Assembly (NCBI GenBank): GCA_017991415.1
Contig: JAGOQR010000001.1
Span: 405,992-469,991, forward strand
Direction: 5' to 3'
Origin: Candidatus Magasanikiibacteriota bacterium
GTDB lineage: Bacteria; Patescibacteriota; Patescibacteriia; Magasanikbacterales; GWA2-37-8
Length of the DNA: 64,000 nucleotides
Position 1 is the stretch's first letter; each line of letters starts with the position of its first letter. Position numbers and translations under genes: made by a program. The notes beneath the pieces were generated by a model, which was given only the letters and a program-made list of their open reading frames with translations, was not told the DNA's origin and did no database searches. Below are positions 17,378-17,956 of the stretch, in pieces.

Positions 17378-17846
17378 AGCGAGCAAACTTGTGCTGCTCG
17401 ACACAAAAAAAACGACCAACCCTCGAGCAAAAATAAAAACTCCCGACTCCTCGGAAGTTTTTATTTTTTACTTGGATACTTATAAATTTTAATTACCTTT
17501 ATTCATCTAGCACTTTCTCTCTTTACTCTATCAATAGAGTAACTTAGAAAAATTATAAAATCTCGGCATCTGTATACTACAGCTGAGCCTGAACACAAGT
17601 TCAAAATTAAAATTTAAACAGATCAATACTTTTTGTATTTATTTATTTTTTTAAAAAAACTATCACCTGTGCATAACTTTCACTTTTACTATTCACAATT
17701 TAAAAAAAACATTCTATAATAAACATGTCGAGAAAAATTTTTACAGCAATGCTTGTCTTGTAAAAATTACTTCAATAAATTTTTTCTTTCCTCGCGAGTA
17801 GAAAAAATTTATTTCTAACTTTAAAAAATGAGAGGAGGTGCACAAT

Positions 17847-17918
17847 ATGGCAGCCAAAAAGAAAGCTAAAAAAGCTAAGAAAGTAGCTAAAAAGAAAACT
17901 ACCAAGAAACGCAGATAG
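17847..17918 (+). CDS. 23-aa lysine-rich small protein MAAKKKAKKAKKVAKKKTTKKRR
   Basis: Strong SD GAGAGGAGGTG 8 nt upstream of the ATG, in-frame TAG, followed 10 nt later by a terminator hairpin; below the 60-aa cutoff of the ORF track. Confidence 0.45.
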   Translation: MAAKKKAKKAKKVAKKKTTKKRR

Positions 17919-17928
17919 TCTTTAAAAA

Positions 17929-17956
17929 ATCTCTCCGCAAGGAGAGATTTTTGTTT
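17929..17956. terminator. bidirectional rho-independent terminator (atctctcc-gcaa-ggagagat + T-run)
   Basis: 8-bp stem with GCAA loop; serves the K-rich sORF (+) and the convergent PHP nuclease gene (-). Confidence 0.65.

Follow-up and report, generated by a model that had tools for sequence, protein, structure and literature searches.

Lysine-rich, histone H1-like proteins are already known from bacteria. The chlamydial protein Hc2 varies in length through the number of its lysine-rich repeats (PMC2848022), and repeats of lysine, alanine and proline (K/A/P) confer or strengthen nonspecific DNA binding in Ku (PMC3553676), in topoisomerase I (TopA; PMC5714199) and in AlgP (PMC9239181), an H1-like protein that organises polyphosphate granules (PMC9239181). 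In Parcubacteria, the ribosomal protein uS19 carries an Ala/Lys-rich C-terminal extension of about 25 amino acids (aa; PMC9297842). Here we analyse a locus at which a polycationic sequence of this kind appears to be the whole gene product: a 23-codon, lysine-rich open reading frame (ORF) in a stretch of 64,000 nucleotides (nt) from a Candidatus Magasanikiibacteriota bacterium (GenBank assembly GCA_017991415.1, contig JAGOQR010000001.1, positions 405,992 to 469,991 of the forward strand; hereafter the window, with coordinates counted from its first nucleotide), together with the promoter, leader RNA and terminator that accompany it. In the literature we found no description of a free-standing oligolysine gene of 15-25 codons, and no paper that deals with this family or with H1-like proteins of Patescibacteria. 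The Patescibacteria (candidate phyla radiation, CPR), which include the Magasanikbacteria (placed by the NCBI taxonomy within the Parcubacteria group), make up a large share of bacterial diversity, have an almost unknown cell biology, and are reported to have very small cell volumes.

Our favoured explanation is that positions 17727-17957 would form a monocistronic gene of about 230 nt, whose product would be an oligolysine peptide of 23 residues, or of 22 once Met is removed before Ala as expected, in an undescribed family apparently restricted to Magasanikbacteria, Uhrbacteria and related Patescibacteria. The product would be an abundant, intrinsically disordered polycation that binds nucleic acid electrostatically and without sequence specificity, neutralising its charge; its likeliest target would be chromosomal DNA, with a role in nucleoid compaction or protection in very small cells. 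The leader would meter synthesis of the peptide or stabilise its mRNA, and a box upstream of the promoter may couple expression to replication or growth. The elements of the locus are as follows, in order along the window.

17668..17676, minus strand: DnaA-box-like element TTATGCACA (extended AAGTTATGCACAGG), about -59 to -51 from the predicted start
17692..17720, plus strand: sigma-70-type promoter, TTCACA, 17-nt spacer, TATAAT, an 11/12 match to the consensus
17727..17732, plus strand: predicted transcription start region GTCGAG, a conserved (G)GTCGA motif 6-9 nt after the -10 element
17737..17767, plus strand: leader hairpin 1, a 10-bp A/U-rich stem with a conserved 11-nt loop CAAUGCUUGUC (17747-17757)
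17775..17812, plus strand: leader hairpin 2, a 13-bp A/U stem (AUAAAUUUUUUCU / AGAAAAAAUUUAU) with a 12-nt loop UUCCUCGCGAGU
17830..17840, plus strand: Shine-Dalgarno (SD) sequence GAGAGGAGGTG, GGAGG core at 17834-17838, 8 nt before the ATG at 17847
17847..17918, plus strand: coding sequence, 23 codons and a TAG stop (17916-17918), MAAKKKAKKAKKVAKKKTTKKRR
17925..17957, both strands: bidirectional intrinsic terminator, stem-loop at 17925-17952 with an A-run 5' and a T-run 3'
17983..19257, minus strand: endonuclease Q (EndoQ) family gene (TIGR00375, PF27218; 424 aa), a conserved neighbour outside the transcript

A lysine-rich frame of 23 codons had been proposed at this site in an earlier, sequence-only reading, and the frame stands, although the peptide (also written as AAKKKAKKAKKVAKKKTTKKRR) has 14 basic residues among its 23 (12 K and 2 R) and not the 15 then counted. 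The strong SD that had been placed 8 nt before the ATG was likewise confirmed, GAGAGGAGGTG starting one base to the right of the position first given for it. This is the sole K/R-rich short ORF with an SD in the window, and the SD is unpaired in the minimum free energy (MFE) fold predicted for the transcript. SD sequences of its class are rare: GG[AG]GGTG followed by ATG within 4-9 nt occurs three times on the two strands of the window, and at gene starts only before the lysine ORF and before one paralogue of the type IV secretion system (T4SS) pilins, while among the 53 long ORFs in the window a GGAGG-class SD accompanies a plausible start in 5, and 42 show no SD or merely a 3-base SD-like match. 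The T4SS-pilin-like genes themselves form an array of eight paralogues (PF18895; 34834-41242, minus strand), of which the gene at 38895-39275 has a strong GGGGGTG SD and may encode the major pilin. The lysine ORF had also been described as unannotated, and this is borne out by the public gene calls of three related genomes, in which no gene is called at the site.

Conservation was followed in two samples of relatives. The first was anchored on EndoQ and consisted of 80 genomic loci around EndoQ homologues, scanned for K/R-rich short ORFs; a Lys/Ala-rich ORF convergent to EndoQ is found in about 20 genomes of Magasanikbacteria, Uhrbacteria and other Patescibacteria. The ORF lies beside EndoQ, just downstream of it, with a GGAGGTG-type SD in L001-L005, L007-L009, L011, L012, L015, L019, L020, L022, L025, L028, L031 and L039 (our locus numbers); it is also found in L056, and one gene further from EndoQ in L010. 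Its ATG, SD and open frame are kept at the same place across EndoQ identities from 91 % to 50 %, and none of the EndoQ loci from outside the Patescibacteria among the 80 fetched has a Lys-rich ORF at that position. Three closer relatives were found through the EndoQ protein (L081/L082, L083/L084 and L085). In L081 and L082, whose EndoQ is 91 % identical, the peptide is identical to that of the window, with one synonymous AAG/AAA difference in the DNA; L083 and L084 (EndoQ 80 %) encode the 15-aa MAKKKKAKKAKKKAR, and L085 (EndoQ 82 %) the 21-aa MAKKKKVVAKKKKKASKKKRK.

The second sample was anchored on the leader, by scanning a metagenome collection for TTTACANNNATGCTTGTCNTGTAAA, and comprises 120 loci. 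Of these, 117 have a K/R-rich ORF whose start lies 60-150 nt beyond the leader hairpin, and two of the three loci without an ORF end at a contig boundary. At L123, hairpin 1 (motif at 330-354, plus strand) is followed directly by an intrinsic terminator without a lysine-rich ORF, and the locus is possibly a natural 'leader-only' variant or a deletion. A reading frame that was not conserved in relatives had been named as grounds for dismissing the ORF; what we find is a frame conserved in more than 100 loci. The possibility of a phage origin was also considered, and a viral collection contains no copy of the leader motif.

Statistics for the family were drawn from 96 distinct, complete copies. 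These are 15-160 aa long (median 38) and are composed of K (48.9 %), A (22.0 %), R (10.1 %), P (7.3 %), V (7.0 %) and T (3.6 %), with D, E, the aromatic residues, Cys, Asn, Gln and Ile missing from the family; the second position is occupied by Pro in 52 copies and by Ala in 42. A GGAGGTG or GGGGGTG SD stands at 7-10 nt spacing in 85 of the 96, and in 97 % of homologues the stop codon is followed, at a distance of no more than 60 nt, by a significantly stable hairpin. Units such as KRKPAKKKVA are repeated in tandem in the long forms, the longest of which stays open for 160 codons in a genome of about 39 % GC, and lysine is encoded by AAA 1337 times and by AAG 761 times. There are no in-frame stops in 4387 codons, as against 150 and 642 in the other two sense frames. 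A Phe/Leu-rich gene on the opposite strand was tried and rejected, as the antisense frames are open by composition and have an SD-like motif in only 6 of the 96 copies. Because frame, SD and position are conserved, in-frame stops are absent, and the antisense strand is without start signals, we have high confidence, judging from sequence, that the ORF is a genuine translated gene. Selection appears to act on its composition and charge and not on its sequence or length.

The family has the composition of a polycation resembling the C-terminal domain (CTD) of histone H1, with about 40 % or more Lys, Ala together with Pro, no acidic or aromatic residues, and no expected fold. Its residue palette, its disorder, a length that varies through repeats, and weak echoes of H1 models together make bacterial H1-like proteins and the H1 C-terminal domain the closest kinds. 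These echoes are sub-threshold and driven by composition: the best relative (113 aa) reaches 21.9 bits to HC2 (PF07382) and 16.2 bits to NF038053, where the curated cut-offs are 40 bits for HC2 and 135 and 80 bits for NF038052 and NF038053, and the only family echoes of long relatives are those to HC2 and to Burkholderia and chlamydial histone H1-like models. The window peptide itself matches none of PF07382, NF038052 and NF038053. An exact look-up of ten family members in a collection of 15 billion proteins found none present, and phmmer with a 56-aa member returned three weak, mis-started 'hypothetical proteins'; correction for composition bias leaves searches of the phmmer type nearly blind to the family. 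We would give about an even chance to the reading in which an abundant, nonspecific polycation neutralises and compacts nucleic acid, most probably the chromosome. Of the two types of product that the sequence-only reading had suggested, the nucleoid-binding peptide is thus the one that is favoured, by the H1-CTD-like composition, the tenfold range of length driven by repeats and the sub-threshold H1-like echoes.

Composition does not tell polyanions apart, however, and a polycation of this kind could have an anionic partner other than DNA, acting as an RNA chaperone (for example for an intron-bearing rRNA), as an AlgP-like organiser of polyphosphate or as a substitute for polyamines. AlgP provides the precedent with its polyphosphate granules (PMC9239181), and the 23S rRNA gene of the window (26636-29861, minus strand, 3226 nt) has a group I intron at 27564-27773. 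Linkage to polyphosphate or RNA-processing genes does not go beyond an occasional RNase III (6/77 loci), and we regard another partner as quite unlikely.

The gene ends in a terminator hairpin with a 12-bp stem and the loop GCAA, followed by TTTTTGTTT. The hairpin folds with -17.3 kcal/mol (z = -5.1), a stability that none of 200 shuffles matches, and it has the form of an intrinsic terminator, a GC-containing stem-loop with a U-run right after the stop codon; it corresponds to no known RNA family. Given the A-run 5' and the T-run 3' of the stem and the end of the EndoQ gene at 17983, this is a bidirectional terminator common to both genes. A terminator after the TAG had been predicted, and one is present (17925-17952), but it is shared with the convergent EndoQ gene and not dedicated to the lysine ORF as had been thought. 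The closest relatives of this EndoQ belong to Candidatus Magasanikbacteria and other Patescibacteria, at 100 %, 91 % and then about 80 % identity. At the leader-anchored loci the downstream neighbour is convergent in 85 of 86 cases and is EndoQ in about 61 of the 86 (by the author's tally of the identity list), whereas the upstream neighbours are variable (DUF389 in 15/77, RNase III in 6/77). The synteny check beside the EndoQ-like gene that had been proposed therefore confirms a conserved convergent pairing in relatives, which may reflect function, EndoQ being a DNA-repair nuclease, or mere sharing of the terminator.

This gene order bears on the idea that the ORF encodes a regulatory leader peptide or attenuator sensing lysine or Lys-tRNA, or else an exported antimicrobial or cell-penetrating peptide. 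Lys codons in a row with a terminator behind them would suit the former, and polycationic peptides can be membrane-active, as the latter would require. There is, however, nothing downstream to regulate, the next gene being convergent in 85 of 86 loci; there is but one hairpin, an ordinary bidirectional terminator with a U-run on each strand; and Rfam gives no match to a T-box, a lysine riboswitch or a leader family. An exported peptide is opposed by the lack of a signal peptide, by hydrophobic residues that are limited to A and V, and by the lack of linked transporter or immunity genes. The attenuator is largely refuted by the convergent neighbour, and we hold the whole alternative to be very improbable.

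Two observations concern the surroundings of EndoQ. A small GNAT acetyltransferase gene lies at 20797-21132 (minus strand), and is found two to three genes beyond EndoQ in L081-L083; lysine-rich nucleoid proteins are common targets of acetylation. In Desulfonema magnum (L041, 3992-7429), EndoQ is part of a 1145-aa fusion in which a Lys-rich linker, SKAVKKKKKAAKPKVKKKPVK, directly follows the EndoQ domain, which may be a coincidental parallel to the adjacency of EndoQ and the lysine peptide. A look through 1.4 Mb of related DNA for 'Rosetta stone' fusions of K-rich tails gave nothing informative besides this Desulfonema case.

Between promoter and SD, the transcript would begin with a leader of two hairpins. 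The motif of hairpin 1 occurs once in the window and is common to many syntenic loci; RNAalifold predicts its stem, there are compensatory changes at its two variable pairs, and the MFE fold contains it as well. Where the search pattern left a single stem position free, 111 distinct loci have 81 Watson-Crick pairs, 29 G-U pairs, no A-C pair and one mismatch, and the occurrence of G-U without A-C argues that hairpin 1 is a helix of the sense-strand RNA and not a DNA palindrome or promoter. These counts, together with the compensatory changes, rule out explaining the motif as a mere promoter (TTTACA-16-TGTAAAAAT, 9/12) or a DNA palindrome. Hairpin 2 is likewise in the MFE fold, its stem shows changes from A-U to G-C and G-U among relatives with a leader of the window type, and its loop bears the palindrome CUCGCGAG. 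The loops of the leader hairpins are nearly invariant. When the window is compared with L081, L083 and L085 segment by segment, the leader (17727-17846) is 100, 89 and 91 % identical, the EndoQ coding DNA 89, 74 and 74 %, the coding sequence of the lysine peptide 99, 56 and 60 %, and the AT-rich spacer further upstream 70, 46 and 47 %, which makes the 120-nt leader the most constrained part of the locus.

A second class of leader, found mostly before longer proteins, has hairpin 2 replaced by GGUGUG-U-AC-CAUG-GU-CACAUC. It occurs in L007-L011 and about 45 metagenome loci (for example L008, L094 and L138), with the conserved motif UUUGGUGUGUACCAUGGUCACAUCA. In its hairpin, which has an invariant G-U pair, 96 % of cells are paired and three pairs are compensated, values that none of 500 shuffles reaches, and the apex is a GC-rich palindrome, RCCAUGGY, with one self-complementary CCUAGG variant. 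The CCATGG of this class was considered as an upstream in-frame start and rejected, because it falls in all frames (17, 21 and 8) and half of the readings contain stops. Nothing in Rfam 15 covers 17727-17846 at the gathering threshold, with only noise at E <= 10. Pairing of loop 1 with the ribosome-binding region is weaker than that of shuffled loops, and the leader loops have no similarity to the 23S and 5S rRNA of the window, which holds no 16S gene. The leader probably acts on the stability of the mRNA or on its translation, possibly in a feedback on a product that would be toxic in excess, and its more than 100 examples make it a candidate for a new class of regulatory RNA.

Such conservation also raises the possibility that the RNA is the main product, the leader acting in trans or as a scaffold while the lysine ORF is secondary and its translation modulates the RNA. 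It fits with this that leader identity exceeds that of both the lysine coding sequence and the EndoQ DNA in L081, L083 and L085, that the hairpin loops hardly vary, that GC-rich apical palindromes occur in both leader classes (CUCGCGAG in the one, RCCAUGGY with its compensated CCUAGG variant in the other), and that in L123 hairpin 1 runs directly into a terminator with no ORF. A by-product would not be expected, however, to keep its ORF, SD and composition in 117 of 120 loci and over as many as 160 codons. In the more distant relatives L015, L019, L020, L025 and L039, moreover, the K-rich ORF persists after a leader of another kind, the rest of the window contains no 9-nt complement of loop 1, and there is no Rfam match. 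An RNA with a merely accessory peptide is thus decidedly unlikely.

Upstream of the lysine ORF, the sequence-only reading had seen a region of roughly 370 nt that was AT-rich and free of ORFs. The tract at 17401-17846 is indeed AT-rich (19-34 % GC per 100-nt window), but it is not empty: it contains the near-consensus promoter, the upstream box and the 120-nt structured leader, and of these the promoter and leader had been overlooked. The promoter is one of only seven sites that score at least 11/12 on both strands of the window; the 23S rRNA promoter, with 12 of 12, is another. Relatives conserve the -10 region and the spacing of the lysine-gene promoter, and GGTCG or GTCGA, the start-region motif, lies upstream of hairpin 1 in 101 of 106 loci. 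From the promoter score, the rare SD class and the unpaired SD, very high expression may be predicted, and the lysine gene probably ranks with the most strongly expressed genes of these genomes.

The element TTATGCACA is an exact match to the DnaA-box 9-mer TTATNCACA. Of 106 loci, 97 have a DnaA-box-like motif, in either orientation, in the 130 nt before hairpin 1, where 0.016 would be expected by chance, with one box per promoter. Other copies in the window (TTATCCACAG or TTATACACAG) lie at 30379-30387, 30 nt upstream of the perfect TTGACA-17-TATAAT promoter of the 23S gene (region 30320-30387, minus strand), and upstream of ruvB (52153-52161, plus strand) and of the ORF at 2373-3518 (3582-3590, minus strand). 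This distribution suggests that the motif is a shared upstream promoter element in the lineage; the fetched loci of relatives contain no rRNA genes. DnaA acts as a transcription factor in other bacteria (PMC5835720, PMC13438810), and the motif could also belong to a regulator other than DnaA. A replication origin at the site is ruled out by the single box, by the absence of a dnaA gene from the window, and by a GC skew that is monotonic and without an origin signature.

In a ribosomal alternative, the peptide would be a small basic ribosomal or ribosome-bound protein (like bS22, bL37, Thx or eL41) or a free-standing counterpart of the uS19 tail, either of which would neutralise rRNA in the reduced CPR ribosome, with the leader autoregulatory as in ribosomal-protein operons. 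Size, charge and very strong expression signals fit such a role; the structured and conserved leader resembles autoregulatory ribosomal-protein leaders in concept, the upstream box recurs at the 23S rRNA promoter, and the Ala/Lys-rich extension of uS19 in Parcubacteria, about 25 aa long, is a parallel (PMC9297842). The window peptide nevertheless has no Pfam or NCBIfam match at E <= 1, ribosomal-protein models included, and no chain at E <= 10 in the PDB, the ribosome structures included; a 56-aa relative gave one chance match there, to eS25 (E = 2). Leader loops unlike the 23S or 5S rRNA of the window, the lack of linkage to ribosomal-protein genes and the variable upstream neighbours add to the case against it. 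The known tiny ribosomal proteins are of fixed length and rich in Arg and aromatic residues. Members of the present family range from 15 to 160 aa, and the length shifts even among close relatives (23, 15 and 21 aa where EndoQ is about 80-91 % identical), which makes them a poor fit to a fixed pocket in rRNA. The bL37/bS22/Thx likeness that the sequence-only reading had raised as its other suggestion is thus not upheld, there being no family match, a composition rich in Lys instead of Arg and aromatics, and lengths of 15, 21 and 23 aa in close relatives. A ribosomal or rRNA-associated peptide remains, on balance, unlikely.

For the nucleoid polycation that we prefer, the adjacency of EndoQ, a DNA-repair gene, and the DnaA-box-like element provide a weak link to DNA. 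Several points weigh against it. DNA binding is predicted from composition, and a peptide of this composition would bind just as well to rRNA, to other RNA or to polyphosphate. Since a DnaA-like box stands before the 23S rRNA promoter too, growth-rate or ribosome-linked control would fit as well as replication-linked control, and the Ala/Lys-rich tail of uS19 indicates that such sequences can be ribosome-associated in this lineage (PMC9297842). The leader is more conserved than the peptide, and the RNA may carry part of the function; the convergent EndoQ adjacency, in turn, may come from terminator sharing only. A more elaborate version of the preferred reading is a self-contained 'minimal chromatin' module, in which an oligolysine of at least 14 residues when mature would replace polyamines or histone-like proteins, its synthesis metered by the leader, the palindrome of the second hairpin serving RNA-RNA kissing or a dimeric factor, and the box that it has in common with the rRNA promoter linking its transcription to replication or growth. 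We consider this full scheme improbable.

The wider setting of the locus adds several features. The window has about 39 % GC and carries, besides the 23S gene, an adjacent 5S gene and eight tRNA genes. Upstream of the lysine ORF lie nusB, rnc, tRNA-Lys(CUU), tRNA-Arg(UCG) and an odd GC-rich stretch. The two tRNA genes (16514-16666) thus stand 1.2 kb upstream of a gene made up almost entirely of Lys and Arg codons, a proximity that is probably a coincidence. The GC-rich stretch (16760-17470, 55-63 % GC, C-rich on the plus strand) lies just after them, behind a near-consensus promoter (TTGACG-17-TATAAT, 16760-16788). It has short ORFs only, no Rfam match and a fold z of -2.5, and in the close relative L081 it is 80-84 % identical at the nucleotide level with indels that disrupt the reading frame; it could be a decaying gene or an RNA of an unknown kind.

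Standard gene callers miss the lysine gene, and the few database entries for the family are mis-started. If the peptide is the main counter-ion of DNA or RNA in these organisms, it would bear on how genomes are packed in tiny cells and would be the shortest stand-alone chromatin-type protein known. The DnaA-box-like promoter element, for its part, would offer a first handle on transcriptional control in the lineage.

Among the systems to which the locus can be compared, bS22, bL37 and Thx are similar to the window peptide in size, charge and strong expression signals, but differ in that there is no match between sequence families, the window peptide is rich in Lys, and the length of its family is unfixed. 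The uS19 extension is similar in composition and comes from a related lineage. Like the autoregulatory leaders of ribosomal- and nucleoid-protein mRNAs, the leader is a structured 5' untranslated region that is more conserved than the coding sequence and precedes a strong ribosome-binding site, although it has no Rfam match and its loop 1 is not complementary to the initiation region. The likeness to the C-terminal domain of linker histone H1 lies in K/A/P content with some V, T and S, in disorder and in the lack of acidic and aromatic residues, and the domain-less H1 of kinetoplastids is a similar kind; unlike linker histone H1, the family is bacterial, has no globular winged-helix domain and is, in the window, ten times shorter. 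This is a class defined by composition, and homology cannot be claimed for low-complexity sequence.

Closer to home, the chlamydial proteins Hc2 (HctB) and Hc1 share with the family a Lys/Ala/Arg-rich, low-complexity sequence without a folded domain, and electrostatic condensation of DNA is presumed to be common to Hc2-type proteins and the peptides described here. Hc2 is 165-237 aa long, as against 15-160 aa for this family and 23 aa in the window, and belongs to a different lineage, and the promoter and leader architecture seen here is not known for hctB. The K/A/P repeats of the family resemble those of the actinobacterial HupB/Hlp, Ku and topoisomerase I tails (of the PAKKA/AKKA type) and of Pseudomonas AlgP. 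In those cases, however, the repeats are appendages of folded proteins or the proteins are much longer, whereas in the present family they are the whole product, with a promoter, leader and terminator of its own.

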